A stretch of 64,000 nt of DNA from Antedon mediterranea. Its lineage: Eukaryota; Animalia; Echinodermata. Position 1 is the stretch's first letter. Every line of letters starts with the position of its first letter. Below the pieces are notes generated by a model, which ran no database searches, was not told the origin of the DNA, and saw only the letters and a list, made by a program, of their open reading frames with translations. The DNA lies in contig NC_092676.1 of assembly GCF_964355755.1 (NCBI RefSeq), positions 29,875,499 to 29,939,498 on the forward strand. Reading direction: 5' to 3'. Positions 8,801-52,870 of the stretch are shown piece after piece. The position numbers and the translations under genes were made by a program.

Positions 8801-11163
8801 GAGGTGATGGAGAATGATCCTGAGGCAGCAAACGAAATGATGACAAAGATTGACAAAACGAGAGCACAGGTATAAAACACTTTATCATTACAATTCAACA
8901 ATATGTAAGGCCAACTTGAATAGCAAAAGCTGATTTAAGGCCAATTTACACAGACGAAAAAAGGCGTAGCTTGGCCCATATAGAATATGTATTTATTCTG
9001 AGCGGAAACCGCCCGTCCGCTCCACGTTGTGGGTAAATGGTCATAAGGAATAACATAGATTTTATATTTTTATTACTGTTACCGCTCGTCTGTGTAAATT
9101 GACCTTTATTTTGGTCTTATATGTCATGTTTGTTAATAAAGTTTCTATATTATTGTACGAGAGTGACAATAAAGTATTTATACATACATTAAATTACAAT
9201 TATCATACCTTTTCAATTGCAACTACTATGTGCCTATACCTTCTCATGGCAAAATAAATAGTAAACATTCAACATTTGTATACTACGGTAAAGAGCGCTT
9301 TATAAATGGTCGATATTATTATTATTATATTTGTATAGTGTCAATAACGTAGTGAATTGTAATAATTTGTATTTTATTTCTCTCATAAAAGGAACGTGTT
9401 AGTCTGAAGCATAGAAACACTGGCAAATGGGCAAAGAGTACTGTTCGCTTCGGTAAATACAATCTACAGGTATGATGATTTCATTTATATTTTATTTGTT
9501 AAAAATAATTTCTATATCAATCTGCTATTTCTATATTATCCATATTTTAATTCTGAGCTGTTGAATGTTGATAGGCTAGAGAGCAGATTCAACAACAGTT
9601 ACAGAAGAGCAGAGACCTGACCCAAAAAATTGCAGAGATCAACAAGAGCGATGAAGAGGATCAAGAAGAGGGCTTGGAGGGAGAAGAAGGTTTGGCGCCA
9701 TCATTGACAGATATCAATAATCCATGGTTTAATGCATCGGCTAAAAATCTGACAAAAGAGGAGTCCAAGACAACGTCAAAGAGCGCTAAGGATCATGTTC
9801 GTATATCCGCACTTGAGGCTGTAACTGCTCAACAAGTTGATGACAGTGATTCTGAAGATGATGACGCTCCAGAAATTGTCACACGTCACATGTTAGAGGG
9901 CGTATCAAATGCTGACTTACTAGAGACTCCTGTTGATGATCAGGAGTTGTTAAGCGAAGGAGTAAATCGCAAACAGACTCTTGAGGATTTTGAATTCACT
10001 GGTTCTGATGAAGAGACTTTACCAGAGGTAAATAACAGCAAGGTCATACACGATTCTAAGGAGGATAGTACAACAGATAAAAGGGGAAACATAAAAGATA
10101 TTCATGTCAATCCTATGAAGGTATTCACCATCAAACCACGAGAAATAAAATGTCTTGAACCAGATATTGTTGTTGGCGATTTTGAAAAGGAAGATAGACC
10201 AGACAAGCACCTGATGAACATACAAGAGGCGTTTGCAGATGATGATGTTGTTGAAGATTTCCAGCAAGACAAAAAGAGAAAGATTGATGAGAGTACACCT
10301 AAGGACATTGACCTTACACTACCAGGATGGGGTGACTGGGGAGGAACTGGGGTCAAGCCATCAAAAAGGAAAAAGAAAAGGTAAGAACATTAGTTTAGTT
10401 GTTTATGAAAAAATAATTCATGATTACAGAGGACATTGCATACTGTACATATATTATTTTATATTATACCAATTCTCTGTTAACAGATTCATAATTAAAG
10501 CGCCACCTGCTGCTCCACGTCAGGACCGAAAACTAGCTCATGTGATCATCAACGAGAAACGAAATAAATCTGTCGCCATGCATCAGGTAAATATTCAAAT
10601 CTGCTTTTGCAATTATTAGTTAAGTTAATTATAGCAGTTAAATATTTCTTACAAAAAACGCCGCTCATCTCATGGTAACTACAGTCTTCGTGCATCTCAA
10701 TATTTATCAGTAAATGTTTTCATAGACTCTCTTTTCCATGACGTACTTTGGGGTGTGCGCATGCCCAGTCCGAGTTTCTAAATACCCATTTTTTCAGCCG
10801 TAGTAAACTACGGTCTCCTAATGCTCCATTCTCTTGAATATAACTGCCTAAAGGAGTGGCGCAAAAACTTTACAATGTGGTAAATTTATTTTTTAAATTT
10901 TCTTTATTTTGCAGGTGAATAATTTACCCTTTCCGTTTAATTCAGCTCAACAATTTGAATCACATATTCGAGCACCGGTAGGAAACACATGGAATACTGA
11001 AGCTGTCTTCAAGAAATTAACAAAGCCCAAAATAAAAACCCAAATGGGGGCAATAATTGAACCTTTATCGGAAGCAGATGCTTTCAAAGATACAGTTAGT
11101 ATTGAGGCTAATAACAAAGAAAAAACAAATAAATCTAAAAGGAAAAAGCATTTTAAGAAATAA
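5822..11163 (+). CDS. UTP14: U3 snoRNP protein UTP14 homologue (UTP14A/C family). Twelve coding exons are resolved; the first coding exon with the ATG lies upstream and was not found.
   Basis: Exons (1-based, + strand): 5822..5873, 6129..6196, 6541..6754, 7303..7458, 7877..7999, 8414..8508, 8746..8869, 9392..9469, 9575..10380, 10487..10586, 10915..11163 (stop TAA 11161-11163). All junctions are GT..AG with consistent reading phase. The translation aligns along its length with human UTP14A as recalled from memory: HSKLLKAIGSLDGKKGKRVQQRSEA vs QKLLEAISSLDGKNRRKLAERSEA; ALKAMSLEE; ARALQSYYE..KKIKSKK; SLKHRNTGKWAKS; DIDLTLPGWGDWGGTGVKPSKRKKKRFIIKAPP..VIINEKRN; VGNTWNTEAVFKKLTKPK. It agrees with ORF-track frames 6521..6784, 8678..8875, 9674..10384 and 10909..11163. 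Confidence 0.85.
6348..6486. mobile_element. MITE, same family, in a UTP14 intron.
   Basis: gctctgtccactctatctaac...gtcaaactagtttgatagttag..gtgtagatagagc. Confidence 0.65.
6786..7150. repeat. 46-bp minisatellite x about 8 (tacctgccttgttggctagctagaacagactcttgtaatagattga) in a UTP14 intron.
   Basis: Direct reading. One unit has ggc replaced by tcc (gtttcctagctag). Confidence 0.95.
7507..7793. mobile_element. Two adjacent partial/short MITE copies of the same family (7507..about 7640 and 7713..7793) in a UTP14 intron.
   Basis: gctctgtctacaccatcaaag... and gctctgtcgacgctatcaaag...gtcaaactagtttagtagtgtagacagagc. Confidence 0.6.
8212..8370. mobile_element. MITE, same family, carrying an internal 18-bp microsatellite (cactaccatatttgggcaca x4).
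   Basis: atgtctacactatcaaac...gtcaaactagtttgttagtgtagacatagc. Confidence 0.7.
9575..10380 (+). CDS. UTP14: UTP14 large acidic central exon (806 nt).
   Basis: Acceptor gatag|GCTAGAGAG at 9574/9575 and donor AAAAG|gtaaga at 10380/10381. Contains ORF 9674..10384. Encodes AREQIQQQLQKSRDLTQK...DIDLTLPGWGDWGGTGVKPSKRKKK. Confidence 0.85.
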
Positions 11164-21332: not shown

Positions 21333-24300
21333 TCACGTACTGCTCTCTCCCGACGCCGTGCTTAATGATCGTCGTTGTCTTTGTAAATACATAGAATTAA
21401 CCAAGGTTCGCGTCGACGTTCCGGTCGGTAAACGCAATCTGGTATCTATGGGTGCTGTATCGTCTACTAATGGCTTAACATATCGTATAGCATAAATCTT
21501 AATTACAAATATACAAATTAAAACAACCCAGCAATTTAATATAAGCGCACTGGCTATGTATATACATTTCGTAAAAAGTTCTTTTTCATCAGTTACAAAA
21601 TACGGTGGAAGAAACGCCAGCAGTATGACGACTGTAGTGAAAGAACAGAAACTTAAAAATCTAGATTCGTAATAGTTATCGGGAAGGCGACGAGCCTTAA
21701 ACACAGACGCACAGCAAACAAGGATGAAGACGAAATTGTAGGCTAGACTGGTGATCACTTCGTTTATTTGGATGTTACACGCAAGCTCGATTCTTGGTGA
21801 GTCTCCCAAGACTTTGCGAGGAAGTACGTCTGGTGGATACAACAGCAACCAAACACTGGATATTATAACCTGGAAATAAATATTACAAAATTTCAGAATT
21901 AGTTGGTTAGATCAGGGAGTTGTAATTACAACTCCCTGGGTAGATCATTAATTGAAGGTTTGCATGGCGAAATCAATATGTTAATATAAAGTTTGCGGTA
22001 CAGCCCTACATCTTGTTCTGCAAAGAACTGCTAAAGTTCCTCGACGTTTCGATTGTGCTCTAGAGCAACAGCGATCTACAGTACATCACCAGATCATTGA
22101 GTGACATTAATTATAACACGAAAGTGTAACTTCTTTTATTATTGAAATTTCAGGAAAAGGGTTCTTGTTTATTAATATTTCTTATCCATGCAAAACATAA
22201 ATAATTGGTTTAATACCTGTATAGAAACAACAATCAGTAAGATTCCAAGTTGTTTCGGTCGTTGGATTAGTTTTGGATTTTCTGTTGAATCTGTAGCAAA
22301 TGCAACCGAAAATATTTTCTGAAGTCTAATACTCTTTAGAGCCATTGATGAATACATTAGGCAGCCTCCGATGGCGGGTAGAAGCCTTGCCGCCGCACAA
22401 ACAGTCTCACTGGGTTTAACAGCAAACGTTATTGTAGCTACCAACACTATTGTCTCACCAAATAAAATGAGATAATTTAGAAGGGGCTCAGAAGTTTGAA
22501 GAATCTGCTCCTTTCGGTAGAAAATGAAGAATATGAGTACGATTAAAATGCCTACAAGTCCGATCGATGCCGTTATAAGAATCAGAGAACCAAGATGGCT
22601 TCCCCAACTGACATAAACTTCCTCCAGTACAAGACATTCCATATGCGTGTTGTCAGGACCAGTTGACCCGTTACATTTCCAGCATTCCTTGTCATTATCA
22701 GGATCTACAATTGTGTCGTCAATACATGCTTTACATTCCCAACAACATCTCACTCTTTCGTAAATCAATACAGTTTGAAATCCGGCTGGACATGTCTCAC
22801 TACATTGGGATTGTGGGATCGACCCGTTTATCGATGATTTCACCGACCAAGTAATGTCATCATTAAAATCAGAGAAGCCGTCTGTAGTAGTCCATGTTCC
22901 CACAGGGTAAGCGCGTAACTTCCCAACTACGGCATCACGTTGGAAATAACTCATCCTGTAACGCCCCTGGATGTCTCCGTGTGAATCGAACTCTATGCGC
23001 CCGTTAACAAGACTGTCAAAAGATGTTCTTCGTAATTCTTCCAGCAAGATGTCACCTGGCACCTGTTGCATTATTTCAACACATTTGTTGTTGGTCGGTT
23101 TAGTATCGTGACAAAGTGAGCTTTGTATGCTGTGCAGTGCGTAAGCGAACGCGTATACGCTATCCATCACTAAGGTATCGTGTGAATCAGTGTCGTCCTC
23201 ATCAATGCATGACGTCATTGAGCAATTTTTTTCGTAATACTCAGAAAACCAAGGATTGTTTGACGTTAATGGAGTAGTTGAGATAAACGATAAATCGAAA
23301 GCCCGTAATCGTTCTGAATACGGTACCATCGTGAACGATCCTTCTGCTGCAGCTTCGTGTTCTACAATGCCTTTAACTCCAGCATTCCCAATGGCGTCAC
23401 TTGCGATCCATATAAAAACACCAGTGGCATTGAGACGCTCTACAGCATCAAATACAGCGTTGGCCGTTTCTAAGTCTAAGAACAATACCACCGCCACTGC
23501 ACCTCTGTCTAAGAGTATTTGTACTATCTGCTTCATGTTACTATCAACTGATACAGCTTCTTCGACTGCTAAACATATTTGATCTGCTGATTGTTTCTGG
23601 AACTCGCTGTAGCCATTGCGCCCGTAACTGTCATCAGAGTACAGAATAGAGACGTATGTCCAGTTGAAGTGGAGAACCAGATCAATCATGGCAGTCACCT
23701 ACGAAAAATCAAATATTAAGGCAAAATTAAAACAAACACTAACGAGTGTAGAATGTTTCCATTTATAAAGATTTGTTTCAACTAAGACGCAGCGCAAGGA
23801 CGACGTAAGCGCAAGGATGACGTAAGCGCAAGGATGACGTAAGCGCAAGGCACAAGCACAATTAATTAAAGTGTACAAAATATTGAAAGAAGAGCAAATA
23901 AAATGTGTAATATGTAAAGTATAATTATACGCGCTAAAATCGACTTACCTGGAATCTATCAGGCGGTACAGTCCTAAGAAAATACTCATACTTAATCTTG
24001 TCGCTAAGTTCATCACTGGTTGACAGGTAGCTAATCTGAGGAACGTTGAATAGACCCAAAGTGGTGGCTGCCTGAATACTGCTACTACTCCTCTGAGCAC
24101 CAATCACACCAGAAATATTACGGAATTGTGTACAATCTGTTGGTGGTGGAGCTATACAACTCCCAACACATGTCTCTTGTTCGTTTACATGTTCCTGATC
24201 TAGCACAAAGTTAACACTTTCCCCCAAAGCTACCGCATCATAGTAACATGTATCTCTGATATCAAATCCTAGTTTTATTCCAGGTAACATTTTTAAGTCT

Positions 24301-24539
24301 TTGTTTATTTTATCAACAGCGTACACTAATGCCTCGACTCGTTTGATGTATGGAACGGCTAAAATGCCTTCACATTCACCACTCGTCTCGTTGTATTCAT
24401 GAACTGGCATCAACGCCCCAAGAATCAAGTCACCGTCTACAAAATATCTATCTGTTGAAGATGATCTTGCCAAGCAGAAGAGAAGCACCAAGTTGAAAAC
24501 GTTCATCAACATATATTTAGGCATGGAAGATTGAAACAT
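21333..24539 (-). CDS. Class C GPCR (metabotropic-glutamate/calcium-sensing-receptor-like). It has a signal peptide, an ANF-receptor-type ligand-binding domain, a 9-Cys domain and a 7TM_3 region. Three coding exons.
   Basis: Exons (minus strand): 23949..24539 (start MFQSSMPKYMLMNVFNLVLLFCLA...), 22217..23698, 21333..21869 (stop at 21333). Junctions are CCAG|gtaagt...ttttcgtag|GTGACT and ATACAG|gtatta...tttccag|GTTATA, all phase 0. Motifs TVPPDRFQ|VTAMIDLVLHFNWTYVSILYSDDSYG are typical of the mGluR Venus-flytrap lobe-2 region. The Cys-rich domain is CSETCPAGFQTVLIYERVRCCWECKACIDD...CWKCNG. The seven hydrophobic helices include TM4 split by the second intron (LGILLIVVSIQ|VIISSVWLLLYPP). Confidence 0.8.
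22217..23698 (-). CDS. Class C GPCR large exon (Venus-flytrap C-lobe, Cys-rich domain, TM1 to TM4).
   Basis: Part of ORF 22172..23698. A donor on the minus strand at 22217/22216 (ATACAG|gtatta) precedes the in-frame stop of the raw ORF. Continuing into the 21869 acceptor restores a full 7TM. Confidence 0.75.
23793..23850. repeat. (gacgtaagcgcaagga)x4 microsatellite in GPCR intron 1.
   Basis: Direct reading. Confidence 0.9.
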
Positions 24540-30757: not shown

Positions 30758-33022
30758 ATGTCAATCTCTACGCCATTGTCACTTTTAGGAAAGGTTGCGA
30801 TTATAACAGGTATGGTATCAAATATTAATTATACTAAATAGGCTATGAATATTAGTAGATGAGTAATTTAAAGCCTAGGCTAGGCCTTGCCCTTGTCAGC
30901 TAGAGACTAGAGAGGCTAGGCTAGCTCTCTCGTCTAGGTAGGTCCAGGCCTATATATATATATATATATATATATAAGCCTAGCAAGTAGATAAGTCACT
31001 TATTTAGGCGATGTGGATCAGCTTGGATGGGCTGTAGGCCTAGCCTTGTAGGAGTAGGCATACTGTGTAACTAGTCTAGCAGGTTAGTTAACCCTGTTAA
31101 TAAATTCATTTATTACAGGTGCAAGCTCAGGAATTGGCGCAGCGACAAGTGTTCTGTTCGCGAAGCTTGGCGCCAAGTTAGTTTTAAGTGGCCGACCAGA
31201 AGATAACTTTGAAGAAACTGATAAAAATTGCAAACAACATGGCGCTGAGGTATTGTAAAAGGGAATCCAATCTTTTTCAATTTTTGGTAATAGCTCCATT
31301 AAATAAATTCATGCTGGCAGCAGAGGGTTGTAAAATATTATTATTTTATAACTCCCTGCTGCAGGTTCAAAGTCATAAAATATATTTGAAATATGTCAAT
31401 TACATGTTACACTTACAGCCTTTGATTGTACCTGGTGACGTAACTAAAGAAGCTGATAACGTGGCATTGATAGAGAAGGCAGTTGAACACTTTGGAAAAC
31501 TTGACATATTGGTATGTAAAAACTCTTGTAACCAATGCCATGTTCATTACCTCATCTTCAACATTTTTTTAAATATCAAGTTTATCATTTGTATTGCAGA
31601 TAAACAACGCTGGAATATTGTTATTGGGAACTATAGAAACGACTAGCTTACAAGATTTTGATCATGTAATGAATACAAATGCCAGGTAAGGCAGGAGAAA
31701 ATGTTGAAGGGAGATGTGTTTTGCTTGAATAATATGGTAAGAGTGAGAAAGAAGGGAGGAGGGCCTGGTTGTTAAGTTGCTTGTACATCTCTGACTACAC
31801 TATCAAACTAGTTTGACAAAAAGTGTGATGTGCTTAAATATGGTAGTGATACGACATTATCAATATCACTGCTTTAGGCAGTATAAGTAGCATGGAGGAT
31901 TACTCTGCTAAGCGCTGTCTAGACTATCAAACTATATTGACAAAAAAATGTGCCCATATATGGACATGATGATGTTATATCACTACCATATTTGGGCACA
32001 TCACACTTTTTTGTCAAACTAGTTTGATAGTGTAGACAGAGCTTAAGAAGGCATTTTTTCAGTTTATTGCGAGAATGGCACAGGATCCATGACAATAAAT
32101 TATTATATTACTGATAAATGTTGATAAATTTAAATTTGTTGTATTCCAGATCTGTATTTCATTTGACATCACTTGCAGTACCTCACCTAATTAAAACCAA
32201 AGGAAACATTGTGAATGTGTCCAGTGTCAACAGTATAAGATCGGTAAGGTCAAATGAACATTAATGTAATTTATAAATGTTTAATCTGTCCAAAAAAAAA
32301 CTTCAGATAAATACATAATTGTTTTTTTGATAGTTTCCAGGTGTGCTTGCTTACGGGTCATCCAAGAGTGTTATAGACCAGGTGACACGTTGTGTAGCTC
32401 TTGGTAAAAATACCTTTTAAATTATTTTTGTAATTATTATTATTCATATAAGTAATCTTCAATTATTATTTGGTAATTTCAATTTTTTTTTTCAGAAATG
32501 GCATCAAATAAGATACGAGTGAATTCTGTCAAGTAAGTATTTAATTGTATTTAAATTTTTTTTTTTTTGGTTCAGTATAGTATTTAACATCAGGGAAAAG
32601 TTAAAACTTGGCTGTTTATTGTTTGATTTTATTTGTGTTATTTTTTCTCTTGTTTCAGCCCTGGAGTGATTATAACAAATATTCAAAGAACTGCTGGATT
32701 TACTGAAGAACAATATGCTGCTGTGAGTATAAAAATACTTCTTTTTTCTCAACATCATTAATTCAAGTCAATATACTACTGTATTACAACAACTACAGTG
32801 TTATTGTGCACTATATCTAATAGTACATAACAAATACACTAACATTTTAAATTCTTTCCATAGTACCTTGAAAAAAGTAAAACAACTCATGCACTGGGTC
32901 GAGCTGGTGAAGCAGACGAAGTGGCTAACGCTATTGCATTCTTAGCGTCGGATGCAGCGTCGTTTATTACTGGTGTCAATCTTCCTGTAGATGGTGGTAG
33001 ACATGTTATGTGCCCACGATAA
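30758..33022 (+). CDS. SDR paralogue B. It has the same 9-exon structure as A, with a one-codon deletion in exon 4.
   Basis: Exons: 30758..30809, 31119..31249, 31419..31511, 31600..31685, 32149..32242, 32334..32403, 32496..32532, 32659..32722, 32864..33022 (TAA). Same phases as copy A. Protein [61 protein letters not shown]... Confidence 0.85.
30951..30977. repeat. (TA)13 dinucleotide microsatellite.
   Basis: tatatatatatatatatatatataa. Confidence 0.95.
31790..32043. mobile_element. Two MITE copies of the same family in SDR-B intron 4 (partial at 31790..31870, complete at 31910..32043).
   Basis: ..ctctgactacactatcaaactagtttgacaaaaagtgtgatgtgc.. and agcgctgtctagactatcaaac...gtcaaactagtttgatagtgtagacagagc. 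Confidence 0.7.
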
Positions 33023-45922: not shown

Positions 45923-47731
45923 TTACTCACCAGAAGAATACAGGTCAACTGGTCGGATCCTTCCATCTTTTCCATATTCGAATAGACAGTTTTTGTTTAT
46001 TGCGTAACCTACACCTTTATGTCGATAATCTGGATCCGCCGATGTCAAACCAGTGGTTGGGGGATGGAACGCCTGAGGAGTAGTGCAGTGTGGGCTTAGT
46101 TTGGGACCAATGTGAGAATAATTGATTGGAGAACTTGTTGAACTCTGAGCTGTGGCCGAACTTGAAAGGACAGTTTTTCGTTTCTTTGTGCTTAGATCAT
46201 GGGCAGCTGTTGTGCTTAGATCATGGGCACCTGTCGTGCTTAGATCAAGTGGTTCCTCGTCATTTGATGGTCGTTTTTGTCCGTGCTGCTGTGAGCTGCT
46301 GAAATTGTAATAATGCATTGGATATGGTGTTCTGGTCATTACGGGTATCGGTAGCGGTTGTGTAGTAGGCCTACTTCCGGCGGGCATCATGGGAACATGA
46401 GAGGGATACGACGTGTGGGTGTAAATATTATGTCTGCTTACTGGAAGAGGCGTCTTCGGTTGTCTACAAAACCTTTGTACAATGTGTTGGTTGGCAAAGA
46501 TTGGAGGATACAGTGAAGATTGCGGATGAGGTACGTTTCCAACTACTTGGTTTTTCCGATTTGCCAAAGGTGTCGGCAGGGGAATTATGTCTGGTGTATT
46601 ATAGTGGGAGTACGCAACTGGTTTGTAAATATCTTGTACAGCTTGTGACAGTGCGAAAGGAGATGGTAGATGGCTCACTGGACTACCATTGTTTCCAAAC
46701 TCTTGGCTTAGGCCTACTGGAATTGGTATCTGCTGTATTGGCGAATCATCAACGCTTTGAGGAATTGTGTCGGATGACGTCACTCTGTGGTTGAACTGTA
46801 CTTGGTAAGTATCTTGACTAACGTCTCCAGATTGTCTGTTTATACATTGGTTTACTGGAGTTGTCATTTCTGGGTTGACAGTTTTGCCGCCAACAGCACT
46901 GGACAAAGCGACAGGAAACGGTTTACAGGGAGAGTCCTCGACGATTTGGAGTGGACTCTCTGGGCTGGCCACTCTTTGTGGTGAATGTTGTAATGGCGAC
47001 TCTGCAGTGCGATCTTCTGTATCATTTTGGAAGGACGCGACTGTACATGGTGTCTGTCCTCTCCTTACGGAATAATTACTATCACCACCATCACTCACTG
47101 CAAGATCTCTGTTATTGTATTCCAGTTTCTTTTGGAAAGCCATCAGCTGCTGAGGAAATGAACTATCAACAGTTTCAATAACTTCTCGTAAATATATCTG
47201 ATAGCGTATACGTAATTCAATGGTGTTCTTCTCGGTATTGTCAAAATGTTTACCATCGAAATTCAGAACCCAAAAGTTATCCTTTCCATGTGGTTTATCT
47301 GGCCGACGTAGGATCTTTTTGAAACAATCATTGCAGCTCAAGTTATGCCGAACACTGTTCTTCCAACCGGTGTATTCACCTCGAAGAAAATAGAAAGCGT
47401 TCGACATAAAATCAATGATATCTTTAAAGGTCATCATGATTTTTGGGTTTAAGTCAATTGACAAAATTATCATCTCGATGTATGAAAATGGAGAGTTGAA
47501 ATATCGCATTGTGTCAGACTTTCGCTGTTTTTTGTTTAATGTTAACGGTATGGCCGGTGACATGTATGTATCGGTTGGGTCAGAGGTCATGTCATCCGGT
47601 TCTAGTTTGACATAGACGTTGTCCGAGCTGCTATTCTCACATTTTTCCAATTTAACAGATTGAAGAGGTTGATCGCAGACAGTTGAATCCGGAGAGGTTA
47701 CCGCGCTTAATTCTTTCCTTACGCCAGACAT
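45923..47731 (-). CDS. Forkhead-box transcription factor, FoxN-like (FoxN1/4 or FoxN2/3 type). Apparently intronless, 602 aa.
   Basis: Single ORF 45923..47731. The forkhead domain is NSPFSYIEMIILSIDLNPKIMMTFKDIIDFMSNAFYFLRGEYTGWKNSVRHNLSCNDCFKKILRRPDKPHGKDNFWVLNFD. GWKNSVRHNLS-N-CF is the FoxN-subfamily recognition-helix signature. The remainder is low-complexity and Ser/Pro/Gln-rich, as is typical of transactivation regions. A 21-bp coding repeat gives DLSTTGAHDLSTTAAHDLST near the C-terminus. Confidence 0.8.
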   Translation of the reverse strand: MSGVRKELSAVTSPDSTVCDQPLQSVKLEKCENSSSDNVYVKLEPDDMTSDPTDTYMSPAIPLTLNKKQRKSDTMRYFNSPFSYIEMIILSIDLNPKIMMTFKDIIDFMSNAFYFLRGEYTGWKNSVRHNLSCNDCFKKILRRPDKPHGKDNFWVLNFDGKHFDNTEKNTIELRIRYQIYLREVIETVDSSFPQQLMAFQKKLEYNNRDLAVSDGGDSNYSVRRGQTPCTVASFQNDTEDRTAESPLQHSPQRVASPESPLQIVEDSPCKPFPVALSSAVGGKTVNPEMTTPVNQCINRQSGDVSQDTYQVQFNHRVTSSDTIPQSVDDSPIQQIPIPVGLSQEFGNNGSPVSHLPSPFALSQAVQDIYKPVAYSHYNTPDIIPLPTPLANRKNQVVGNVPHPQSSLYPPIFANQHIVQRFCRQPKTPLPVSRHNIYTHTSYPSHVPMMPAGSRPTTQPLPIPVMTRTPYPMHYYNFSSSQQHGQKRPSNDEEPLDLSTTGAHDLSTTAAHDLSTKKRKTVLSSSATAQSSTSSPINYSHIGPKLSPHCTTPQAFHPPTTGLTSADPDYRHKGVGYAINKNCLFEYGKDGRIRPVDLYSSGE

Positions 47732-49396: not shown

Positions 49397-52300
49397 CTAA
49401 AGTTCAATATGTCTTTTCATGTCAAAATACTGATTGTTGTTTTCGAATTGAATGCCAACATTCTCGGCAAATTTCTTATCACTGTCACTGAAGTCATCAG
49501 GTCGACCAGCCGCATCGCCGACATAAACAGCGTTTTCTTTGTCGATTGTCTTGAATTGGTTTAAAGTACAGCTATAATAATCCCACATGCCCGTATCAGG
49601 TTTTCTATACTTGTTCTTAGTCGTGGCTGCTAACACGAACATTGGTACATCAAGGTCTGACGTGATCTTTTCCACTTTAGCCATCCACTCATCTTTATCT
49701 TGAGCACCAGATTCGATGCCGTTCTGGTTGCTCATAATCACATTATTAATGTTGTGATAGAGGTTGTCTTGTATGATTGATTTGACATTTGGAGATGTGA
49801 AAACCCAGTCGTGTTCATTTTGAGGATATGGTTTACCACTTTTTGTCTTGATAATAGTGCCATCCAGGTCGAATGAAGCCACCTGTTCATTTGAGTGAAC
49901 TCCTTTTGTTTCATAATACAACAGTCCATCTGAACGTTCAATCCACCATCCTGATTGGTCACTGAGAGGCGGGAATTGTCTAGCAGTTCGGATACCAGAC
50001 ATCTGATAAACATCTTCAACCAAGTACGAAGCTACGCCATACCATTCGTCAGCAGAATTTGAAATCATCGAACCAGTTCTAAAGAAGGCGGAAGAAACAC
50101 CCGACTCTCTGGAGACAACTTTTTTTGTTGAGATGTAGTCGGTTACTGGCAAATTAAGTTCTGGTTCTTTATAGATTAGTTCTCTTGCTGTGTCGTCAAC
50201 GTAATTTAGAATAGAAACAAACTCAGGTTGACAGTTCAAAGTGAATCGGTTAGTTGAGCCAGGTTGCCTGCCGTTATCGCCGTTCCATTTACCGACCTTA
50301 CTCCACAAGTCGTCTGGTGAAGCTTGTTTAAAGGACTGGCACCACACCATGTATACATACGGTGACGGTTCATGTTTAGGTGTAGGTTCATTTGATGGAA
50401 GAGTTGCTTCTTTTCTGTTGAAAGAAGGATAGTCTTGGATACCACAGCCGTCAACAATTAAACCAAGTGTCGATTTAGCTGCACTGTCGGCAATTTCACG
50501 TTCATCGAGGGCTTCACTGCAAATGAGAGAAAGTTTGATTATAATCGCTGATGTACCCTTTCCTGTCGGTAGCCAAATTACTTCAACCGTAGCCTTCATA
50601 CACTTTGTGACAGACAACGCCAGTTCTTTTATAGCATCTTTAGGGGACATTGGTATGTTCTCATTAACCGAGATTGATAATTCATTTCTTACTAGTAAAT
50701 TTACGTGCTTAAGATGTTGGTAAATAAGCATGTGAGTAAGTTTCTCTGACATTGCGTAGAGCGTCGCCGCTGGGTTACCGTCGGTCTGAGTTGCAAATGC
50801 AGACGCGTCACACACCCTCAGGTTGGTAACGCCTCTTACTTGAAGAAACTCGTCTAAACACTCCGGCATTTTGCATGTTCCTACTGGATGCAAGGCTGAA
50901 ACAAGCATACCTCTCATCCAAGCGTTTAGTTCGTCATCGGTGTCTACATCGAGCCCCGGTGCCACCTCATCCAACACCAAATCACGTAAACTTTTATGAA
51001 CATTTTCCCCAAAAAACATGTTTCGAAGTATTCGAATTTGATCTCGAACTAACCGAGATACCTTTTCAAATGCGGGCGTTGTGTCGTCATTGAGAGTGTA
51101 GTTCCAGCCATACTCGAGACTAGGTTTGTCAAAGATGTTTGGTGTAGTAGCATTGAGTGAACCTCGATACTCCGGCCATTGGTCAATTATACGAATCGTA
51201 CCTTCGTTTGAACCATCGTCGTTGTCGTCATTAACCGCCTGTGGAAATTCCCCCTCGTATAGATATTCTGTTTGCTCCGAATGAGAAGAGTCAGAGGTAC
51301 ATAGTGGGCCAACTTCGTCAAAAAGCTTCGAGTTGCCCATCACATACAGTTGTACGTCACTCATTTCCTCTGGTACACGAGTATTATTCGATCTGTAGTG
51401 GATAATCCAAGAAAACGGTCCATTAATGCTATCAAGATCCGCTGTTTTATAGATTTCTCCATCGATATTAATTTCTGGTGCTTGAAAGTCGTTTGAATCG
51501 GATCTTAGTTTAAGGACATATGGTACCGAAATATGATCCCATAGATGTTGGCCTACATGTTCGTTGTCGGCAACCTCTTCCACTCCAATTCTTCTTAGGA
51601 GATCCCTGGGCCCTACACCACTTACTTGCAATAAGTGTGGTGTATCAAACGAACCACCACTCACAATCACCTCTTTACTAGCACGTCGGGTACGGATTTT
51701 GTTCGATACTACGTCCAAGTATGCGACGCCAATTGCTTTACCGTTTTCAAACATAATTTTCGTTACAGTAGCAGATGTGTGGAGGTAGGGTTTATTTTGT
51801 TGATCCTTATAATAACCAGTGTAGCTGCTTCCACGACCAGTCTTCGAGGCCCGATTTTGTCTAGCTTCATCTGTAGGGACTTTGTTGTCCAGACGTAATT
51901 TGTACTGTTGGAAAACACTGCAGCTGACTCTGTTGTTCTCGGGACCATTGTAGTCTGCTGCGTATCCTTTCCATGGTTTTGTTGTATCCTCACACAAGTA
52001 TTGCATTTCAAACGGGAATTTTCTAAATGCTTCTTTGATTTGACTGTTGAGTTGCATTGGACCACCTTTACCATGCCATTGTTCACACATGTCGCCAGTT
52101 ATACCCGTTACTTCTTCTGAATCATAGTGACAGTAATGATCTTCTATCTTCTTGTAGTACTTCGAAAATTGGTCGTGTTTCCAGCCGTCTGGCCATAAGT
52201 TCAAAACCGCTGGACTTGCACGTCTAGCAATAGCGCCATATACGCGGGATGTTCCACCGCGTCCTCGAAATCGAGGGATATAGATGTGTCGGGCGTCTTT

Positions 52301-52870
52301 TTTCTTGTTGTAAGGCTTAGCATTCGGGTACGACTGCACGTTTGTACCTAAAGCTGGTTGTGTTAGCCAGAATGGATCGTGAGGTGAGGTGAATTTGTAA
52401 GAATTGGTATACCATTCATCCATTCCACTTTCTTCTGGTCCTCGTTCAAAGACGCATATCTTCCAGTGAGGTATTTCTGCCAACCGACCAGCTACAGCTA
52501 GACCTGCTGTGCCAGCACCGACAATTATAAAATCACACGAATCGTTGTCACTGAGATGCTCATCACCATAACTATGGGTAGAAAACAACAAAATAATTGT
52601 AATTTGAATGTAATGCAATCAAGCTTTAATTCCAAGGAATGTTCATAAGCGCATTCAAATAAGTGTTTGAATTAATCGAAAGTGGTGAGTGAATGTTCGA
52701 CAAAGAGAAACTTTAAAAAGCGGATAGCAATGATTTGTTGAACATGTCGAGAAACAATTCAGGGGTTATATGGACATGGAAAATAATAAAGTACATTAAT
52801 TACTGCATTCAACTTACGTAATTGCTATAAACACCAAGCCGATGAGGATGGGATGATACTTCCACATCAT
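49397..52870 (-). CDS. Two-exon gene encoding a secreted fusion protein of about 1075 aa. The order is signal peptide, GMC (glucose-methanol-choline) FAD oxidoreductase, an unknown segment of about 240 aa, then a PNKP-type HAD-superfamily DNA 3'-phosphatase domain.
   Basis: Exon 1 is 52818..52870 (ATGATGTGG.., MMWKYHPILIGLVFIAIT, donor ATTAC|gtaagt). Exon 2 is 49397..52571 (acceptor ttttctacccatag|T, 3175 nt, no stop until 49397). The first 17 codons of the raw 1073-aa ORF (MHYIQITIILLFSTHS) are intron read-through. GMC evidence: GxGxxG FAD fold DFIIVGAGTAGLAVAGRLAE..ERG immediately after the signal peptide, and the C-terminal active-site region LHPVGTCKMP...NLRVCDASAF..DGNPAAT. Phosphatase evidence: HAD motif I FDLDGTII, the PNKP-like motif II region VIMSNQNGI, motif III RKPDTGMW and motif IV VYVGDAAGR, colinear with the human PNKP phosphatase domain as recalled from memory (FDLDGTLI / VIFTNQMGI / RKPVSGMW / VFVGDAAGR). 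No kinase P-loop follows. Confidence 0.8.

Follow-up and report, generated by a model that had tools for sequence, protein, structure and literature searches.

Mammalian PNKP is composed of an FHA domain, a phosphatase domain and a kinase domain. In the helix-grip fold of the SRPBCC proteins, a beta-sheet wraps a long C-terminal helix and encloses a small, usually hydrophobic, ligand; characterised members bind sterols, lipids, hormones, polyketides and quinones. Here we describe a gene that bears on both groups, found in a 64,000-nucleotide stretch of the genome of the crinoid Antedon mediterranea (RefSeq assembly GCF_964355755.1, contig NC_092676.1, positions 29,875,499 to 29,939,498; hereafter "the window", with positions counted from its first nucleotide). 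The gene lies on the minus strand and encodes a GMC flavin oxidoreductase and a PNKP-type HAD phosphatase, separated by a middle region (the "linker") which the original prediction had put forward as a candidate novel domain. We find that the C-terminal ~130 residues of this linker very probably adopt a known fold, as a highly divergent SRPBCC/Bet v 1/START helix-grip domain. An orphan linker of ~250 residues would thereby become a ligand-binding fold between two enzymes.

The described proteins closest to this domain belong to the Polyketide_cyc2-like branch of SRPBCC (PDB 2le1 Tfu_2981, 3f08 Q6HG14, 3cnw XoxI and 7tmu YPO0625), the function of which is itself not established. Compared with this branch, the window domain has no Pfam match, is shorter (~130 aa) and exhibits a sequence identity of 12-21%. 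These relatives are stand-alone bacterial proteins, whereas the window domain is embedded between two enzymes of a putative eukaryotic secretory protein. The PYR/PYL/RCAR abscisic-acid receptors and the Bet v 1/PR-10 proteins are cytosolic stand-alone proteins of plants and exhibit no sequence-level relationship to the window domain; PP2C, the partner of PYR/PYL/RCAR, is unrelated to HAD phosphatases. The di-domain aromatase/cyclases (BexL, 4xrw; StfQ, 4xrt) are bacterial type II polyketide enzymes. In contrast to these, the putative first copy of the module in the window protein (see below) is truncated and without detectable sequence relation to the second, and a cyclase chemistry is unsupported. 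CoxG is a separate membrane-anchored bacterial protein, the partner of a Mo-CO dehydrogenase belonging to an unrelated family, and is not the closest match of the window domain. With mammalian PNKP the window protein shares a homologous phosphatase domain with intact catalytic motifs. However, it lacks the FHA domain, the kinase domain and a 9-residue loop following the GDAAGR motif, while possessing an upstream GMC module, the SRPBCC-like module and putative secretory signals.

The window exhibits a minus-strand open reading frame (ORF) of 1073 codons at 49397-52618, which contains NPAATLYAMSEKLTHMLIYQHL, the middle block and GWWIERSDGLLYYETKG, that is, the peptides from which the linker was originally proposed. 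The segment of that proposal (positions 49980-50700) corresponds to ORF residues 640 to 880. A linker is indeed present between the two catalytic modules, but its length had been put at about 240 residues; by the boundaries of Pfam, TIGR01664 and the mouse PNKP alignment, the part without a Pfam domain extends from ORF residue 624 to ~898-911, or ~265-290 aa. The claim that it has no recognisable family is borne out for Pfam: a scan of the linker with three sequences (E-value<=10) returned no credible family, SRPBCC families included. One match to Tri-helical_Ada2b_C, covering 20 residues in one of the three sequences and below threshold, was set aside as a chance match.

Using a profile of the linker against all PDB sequences, the best match was 2le1_A, with 3f08_A also listed; the linker aligns with both over the pattern ..E.V..L..vDd..R.L.Y.....lPvtdy..t..Vv. 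The two matches come from structural genomics and recur among the SRPBCC-type proteins of the fold searches described below. Focusing on the second half of the linker, a 6-sequence profile searched against 177,635 PDB sequences retrieved as its top three matches 2le1 (E-value = 4.2e-4), 3f08 (E-value = 0.021) and 3cnw XoxI (E-value = 0.031), followed only by unrelated antibody fragments at E-value>=0.16. All three are SRPBCC proteins, and their E-values against the helix-grip part are marginal.

The structure predicted by AlphaFold2 (AF2) for a 251-residue region, computed from the 6-sequence alignment, has a predicted template modelling score (pTM) of 0.61 and a mean predicted local distance difference test (pLDDT) of 61, with block means of 58-85 (mostly 70-85) over linker residues 121-210. 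An AF2 model of the linker together with the phosphatase, computed from a 3-sequence alignment, was discarded (mean pLDDT 35, the HAD domain not being folded). In the retained model, the predicted elements are a strand (116-125), a short helix (130-134), five strands (151-155, 161-170, 175-180, 187-199 and 204-215) and a long helix (218-235). The model thus exhibits the antiparallel beta-sheet around a long C-terminal helix that characterises the helix-grip fold (beta-alpha-alpha-beta6-alpha). A Foldseek search with the model returned SRPBCC-type proteins at an E-value of ~1e-6, and all top structural matches are small-molecule binders or enzymes. Since the same three PDB proteins (2le1, 3f08 and 3cnw) were retrieved by sequence as well as by structure, we take the SRPBCC assignment as solid. 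The helix-grip part of the linker is accordingly a new sequence family of known fold overlooked by current Pfam models, and would define a new SRPBCC subfamily.

Homologues of the linker are very few. With the linker alone as query, 5.8 billion proteins yielded two relatives, P0001 and P0002. From 1.84 billion cluster representatives, searched exhaustively by HMMER with a linker profile of three sequences, only three 50%-identity clusters were recovered: P0003, a full-length orthologue-type (crinoid-type) sequence; P0004, from Paramoeba aestuarina (MMETSP); and P0005, from Diplonema papillatum (KAJ9447036.1), annotated as "L-sorbose 1-dehydrogenase". When the protein search was repeated with a 6-sequence linker alignment, P0001 alone was among the matches listed. 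Scans with the linker alignment found no relatives in JGI metagenome contigs, IMG/VR viral contigs or GTDB one-per-species prokaryotic genomes. A giant-virus or bacterial source is therefore unsupported by these data. Besides the crinoid-type sequences, the family is known from one amoebozoan, Paramoeba, and one diplonemid, Diplonema, a patchy distribution compatible with either eukaryote-to-eukaryote transfer or massive loss. Because this distribution is so small and scattered, the family is a candidate for genes shared among marine eukaryotes.

The order GMC, middle region, PNK3P is kept in every homologue spanning both catalytic modules (P0003, P0004, P0005 and L001, one of three independent Logan assemblies, L001-L003, of one orthologue); P0001 is truncated upstream of the GMC module. 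A literature search found no published GMC + PNK or GMC + SRPBCC fusion, and the GMC, SRPBCC-like, PNK3P architecture is undescribed. The Paramoeba protein possesses an extra, bona fide Polyketide_cyc2 (SRPBCC) domain after its phosphatase (residues 587-707; PF10604, Pfam E-value = 9e-17). A protein search with this C-terminal domain found nothing. By its sequence, the family appears to have acquired the SRPBCC fold a second time, independently, in the Paramoeba homologue.

The middle region is 52-61% identical to three orthologue-type sequences and 23-28% identical to the two protist homologues. Across six sequences, 27 of its positions are invariant; a count over the crinoid-type, Paramoeba and Diplonema sequences gives 24 invariant positions. 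Invariant polar residues cluster on two adjacent predicted strands, as D-Y-x-x-T-K and S-x-x-x-R-x-x-S. Identities to L001, P0003, Diplonema and Paramoeba are, respectively, 52%, 55%, 23% and 28% in the middle region, 71%, 62%, 49% and 65% in the GMC module, and 67%, 67%, 41% and 33% in the phosphatase. Between the window protein and L001, non-synonymous differences per site (pN) are 0.20 in the GMC module, 0.32 in the middle region and 0.205 in the phosphatase, while synonymous sites are saturated in all three parts (pS 0.78-0.93; 0.78 in the middle region). This low non-synonymous and saturated synonymous divergence indicates that all three parts are under purifying selection, the middle part being somewhat more relaxed. 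The stretch is more than a chance ORF sequence; it is conserved and non-repetitive. The original proposal of a folded segment that is not of low complexity fits these data and the AF2 prediction, which shows a fold rather than disorder. As for its novelty, a match to a known domain was the refuting outcome named with the original proposal, and the match to a known fold largely annotates the second half, and only the first ~110 residues are left without an assigned family or fold.

That N-terminal sub-region is predicted by AF2 with low confidence (pLDDT ~40-58) as a helix (21-33), two strands (35-46 and 52-62) and a second helix (68-80). Its profile found no credible match in the PDB; a ribokinase match (E-value = 0.44) was dismissed as noise. 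It is ~50 residues longer in both protists, Paramoeba and Diplonema. In Diplonema, it aligns with the start of the protein's own helix-grip part (VLWQQDFRTVSTEDL...TMQLPGYPVLT against VLWRQNFDTVTQPEL...TFQLPGLPAMT). This internal repeat has a BLASTP E-value of 2e-6 and a Smith-Waterman score of 65, against 28 +/- 4.8 for shuffled sequences, none of 2000 shuffles reaching 65. The same Diplonema segment also aligns to the Paramoeba helix-grip part (1/2000 shuffles), and a profile-profile comparison for the repeat is weak (hhalign probability 9.5%). Since the Diplonema segment recognisably copies the start of its own helix-grip module, the middle region probably began as a tandem pair of modules resembling the helix-grip, the first of which would have decayed and shortened in the crinoid lineage.

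The flanking modules are readily classified. Upstream, the window protein exhibits both the N-terminal FAD (flavin adenine dinucleotide)-binding domain and the C-terminal domain of GMC oxidoreductases, with a FAD-binding motif of the GxGxxG type (VGAGTAG) at ORF residues 33-39. Among solved structures it is closest to choline oxidase/dehydrogenase, alcohol oxidase and formate oxidase (E-value ~1e-28), and the module is generic. Downstream, the HAD-type 3'-phosphatase domain of PNKP is recognised by TIGR01664 (157 bits, cut-off 107.65) and by mouse PNKP (1yj5, E-value = 2e-28), with the DLDGT, SNQ, RKP and GDAAGR motifs aligned and intact; both matches begin ~13 residues before the PNK3P Pfam boundary. 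Given the FAD motif, the GMC domain scores, the intact HAD motifs and a TIGR01664 score above cut-off, both catalytic modules look active. After GDAAGR, nine residues corresponding to the LANWAPGRK-type loop of mouse PNKP are missing (window ~49490-49510, minus strand), and this short form is common to all members of the family. A kinase domain is absent: the protein ends 10 residues past the phosphatase, and the TIGR01663 score of 135 bits is far below its cut-off (502.8). Nor was FHA matched in the whole protein (E-value<=0.1) or in the linker (E-value<=10). The comparison drawn earlier with the FHA domain and linker of PNKP is therefore one of position only.

The N-termini of the three full-length proteins (the window protein, P0003 and P0005) are short, hydrophobic and signal-peptide-like. 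The window protein terminates in HIEL and the orthologue P0002 in HSEL. HXEL is known as the endoplasmic reticulum (ER)-retrieval variant of mammalian carboxylesterases, HIEL being the motif of human CES1 (PMC6146386). By analogy, the signal-peptide-like exon 1 and the HIEL C-terminus predict an ER-lumenal protein, which would be an unusual location for a PNKP-type phosphatase, and these same signals make a DNA-repair role unlikely.

Taking these data together, we are inclined to view the linker as the central one of three modules in a secretory-pathway enzyme, in which a signal peptide is followed by the GMC flavin oxidoreductase, the middle module, the PNKP-type HAD phosphatase and HIEL, and in which the helix-grip module binds a small molecule. 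The helix-grip domain would hold a hydrophobic or amphipathic small molecule and present it to the flanking catalytic modules. The HAD domain would take the phosphate off a phosphorylated alcohol, and the GMC domain would then oxidise the hydroxyl so freed. The protein would act in the ER lumen or outside the cell, and not on nuclear DNA ends. The parts of this proposal differ in strength. We see an even chance that the helix-grip domain binds a ligand or substrate on behalf of the catalytic domains, by analogy with the characterised SRPBCC members, which bind small molecules. The dephosphorylate-then-oxidise hand-off is suggested tentatively. The second SRPBCC domain of the Paramoeba homologue, as a sign of the affinity of the family for this fold, is counted in support. 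Of the substrate-targeting role originally considered for the linker, a small hydrophobic ligand, rather than DNA, is the plausible object.

If the modules are so coupled, this would mark the first case of a PNKP-family phosphatase acting on something other than nucleic acid, within a new GMC/SRPBCC/HAD architecture. With a ligand-binding fold between the two enzymes, the functional hypothesis for the whole protein shifts from DNA-end repair, as the PNK3P annotation implies, to a chemistry of small molecules, either within the ER or extracellular. A more far-reaching scenario, which we consider doubtful, is that a PNKP-type phosphatase left DNA repair for the secretory pathway, where its substrate would be a hydrophobic phospho-alcohol (the phosphate of a lipid, isoprenoid, steroid or polyketide). 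There, the tandem helix-grip modules would extract the substrate and pass it to the phosphatase and then to the GMC oxidase, and the scattered occurrence of the family would point to transfer among marine eukaryotes. An enzyme with these three steps ("bind, dephosphorylate, oxidise") would be of a kind not described before.

Several observations weigh against the ligand-binding enzyme that we favour. The best sequence E-value for the helix-grip part is only 4e-4, and no Pfam SRPBCC family, Polyketide_cyc2 (PF10604) included, is matched by the linker at E-value<=10, although the same library recognises PF10604 in the C-terminal domain of the Paramoeba homologue. The AF2 model is of moderate confidence, with no residue reaching 90 and an alignment of only six sequences. 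Linker profiles compared by hhalign with the single Paramoeba Polyketide_cyc2 sequence gave no signal, which argues against a recent duplication of that domain as the origin of the internal module. The internal repeat seen in Diplonema was not detected within the window protein or within the Paramoeba protein. Several invariant positions hold a polar or charged residue (Q, D, T, K, R or S), which fits a specific ligand or catalysis without being diagnostic of either. The signal peptide and the ER retention were assigned by visual inspection and analogy. The score above the cut-off of the NCBIfam "DNA 3'-phosphatase" model makes a nucleic-acid substrate possible on sequence, and the substrate and the coupling between modules are purely what we infer.

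One alternative is that the helix-grip domain serves the oxidoreductase alone, binding a quinone or another lipophilic electron acceptor and delivering it to the FAD of the GMC domain. Dehydrogenases with quinones instead of O2 as electron acceptors are common among GMC enzymes, and the middle domain directly follows the GMC C-terminal domain. A precedent for such a delivery to a flavin enzyme is given by the SRPBCC protein CoxG, which extracts menaquinone and hands it to the flavin-containing CO (carbon monoxide) dehydrogenase (PMC12202499). However, the best structure and sequence matches of the window domain are Polyketide_cyc2-like and PYL/Bet v 1 proteins and not CoxG, the conserved phosphatase fusion would be left without a role, and respiratory quinones would not obviously be available to a soluble protein that is secreted or resides in the ER lumen. 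We regard this shuttle as unlikely.

We give similarly low credence to a ligand-free scaffold, in which the middle module, its helix-grip cavity collapsed, would be a rigid spacer or oligomerisation module positioning the two enzymes. The middle region is the least conserved part of the protein, both against L001 (52% vs. 71% and 67%) and against Diplonema (23% vs. 49% and 41%). Its pN (0.32) exceeds that of either flanking module (0.20), the domain is short for its fold (~130 aa), and the disulfide-like cysteines of the crinoid-type sequences could simply stabilise it. But the invariance of 24 residues across very distant eukaryotes, the polar cluster among them, is beyond the needs of a spacer, and the recruitment of a second SRPBCC domain by the Paramoeba homologue argues in the same direction.

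Still less probable is a ligand-gated regulator, in which the helix-grip domain would sense a small molecule and switch the HAD phosphatase or the oxidase on or off. The model for such a switch is the PYR/PYL receptors, which inhibit PP2C phosphatases once abscisic acid is bound, and the window domain stands just upstream of a phosphatase, with a gap of ~20 residues. Yet PYL and PP2C are separate proteins, PP2C being from an unrelated phosphatase family, the identity of the window domain to PYLs is merely 13-15%, and a structural likeness among SRPBCC proteins does not carry function. Least likely, and in our judgement very improbable, is the module for nucleic-acid binding or DNA-end targeting first suggested as the counterpart of the FHA domain plus linker in PNKP. 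Some plant SRPBCC-domain proteins act on RNA, and a true PNKP-type 3'-phosphatase lies downstream (TIGR01664 above cut-off; mouse PNKP, E-value = 2e-28). A review on chloroplast RNA-stabilisation factors (PMC5897788) reportedly mentions SRPBCC. However, the Pfam scans gave no signal of FHA or any other nucleic-acid-binding family, a kinase domain is missing (TIGR01663 far under cut-off), the full-length members have signal-peptide-like starts and the window protein an HXEL end, the module has a flavin alcohol oxidoreductase as its fusion partner, and each of the top structural matches is a small-molecule binder or an enzyme.

Table 1. Features of the GMC/PNK3P gene and of its neighbourhood in the window, with the basis of each assignment.
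Feature	Position in window	Strand	Basis
Exon 1, 53 nt (ATG and signal-peptide-like N-terminus MMWKYHPILIGLVFIAIT)	52818..52870	-	Read from sequence, spliced
Intron, 246 nt (GTAAGT...CATAG), joining exon 1 in frame to the long exon	52572..52817	-	
GMC_oxred_N (FAD-binding), ORF aa 29-363	51530..52534	-	Pfam PF00732, E-value = 6e-20, 72 bits (cut-off 23)
GMC_oxred_C, ORF aa 482-623	50750..51175	-	Pfam PF05199, E-value = 2e-18, 68 bits (cut-off 24.6)
Junction codon CAC (His) at the GMC/middle boundary	50705-50707	-	Equivalent to TAG at L001:1977-1979
N-terminal sub-region of linker, residues 1-111 (protein ~641-751), predicted helix/two strands/helix	50372..50704	-	AF2, low confidence
Predicted helix-grip domain of divergent SRPBCC type (START/Bet v 1-like), linker residues 112-243 (protein ~752-883)	49976..50371	-	
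Covarying cysteine pair site	50150-50200	-	Alignment columns ~224-237
PNKP-type HAD-IIIA 3'-phosphatase, PNK3P, ORF aa 912-1065	49424..49924	-	Pfam PF08645, E-value = 4.5e-47
C-terminal HIEL, HXEL variant of the KDEL ER-retrieval signal	49400..49411	-	Sequence
Stop codon	49397-49399	-	Sequence
Class C G protein-coupled receptor exons (ANF_receptor, NCD3G, 7tm_3)	21333-24539	-	Pfam
Short-chain dehydrogenase fragment	31188-31646	+	Pfam
Utp14 exon	9674-10384	+	Pfam

The codon at which the GMC module meets the middle region differs between the window and other sequences (Table 1). Exactly at this junction, it is TAG in each of the three assemblies L001, L002 and L003, and TAT (Tyr) in L005. Past the TAG, the reading frame stays open for another 439 codons, which are conserved. 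Downstream of the TAG of L001, no stable RNA fold that could act as a readthrough signal was found (z-score -0.03). Readthrough giving two isoforms, a recent nonsense allele, and separate expression or translation of the two parts are all possible.

Spaced cysteines had been taken as a sign of a folded domain. Four of them are invariant in the crinoid-type middle regions, but they are absent from the protist homologues. P0001, P0002 and P0003 have two further cysteines (HCF / CSIL), which are replaced jointly by R and V in the window protein. That both cysteines are lost together suggests a disulfide across two strands of the putative helix-grip domain. Like the four invariant cysteines, this pair is in keeping with a protein of the secretory pathway.

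P0001 (L004:14-1234) lacks the aspartate that is the HAD nucleophile, exhibiting AYALDNT in place of FDLDGT. Its ratio of non-synonymous to synonymous substitution rates (dN/dS) against P0003 is ~0.75-0.83 in the middle region and in the phosphatase alike. Together, the lost nucleophile and this ratio suggest that P0001 is a degenerating paralogue or a pseudo-enzyme.

The window has a GC content of ~33%, with scattered coding islands. Splicing of the two exons of the GMC/PNK3P gene gives a product of 1075 aa that matches exactly the Antedon mediterranea proteins XP_071956123.1 and XP_071956124.1 ("uncharacterized protein"), which confirms the intron. The neighbours of the gene (Table 1) are ordinary animal gene content. 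A contaminant origin was rejected on the grounds of the spliceosomal intron, these neighbours and the exact RefSeq match. A single-exon ORF of 602 aa encoding a forkhead protein (45923-47731, minus strand; Pfam E-value = 8e-21) is located 1.7 kb downstream of the GMC/PNK3P gene. Its exact translation is missing from the protein collection, so the RefSeq forkhead model probably differs from this ORF.

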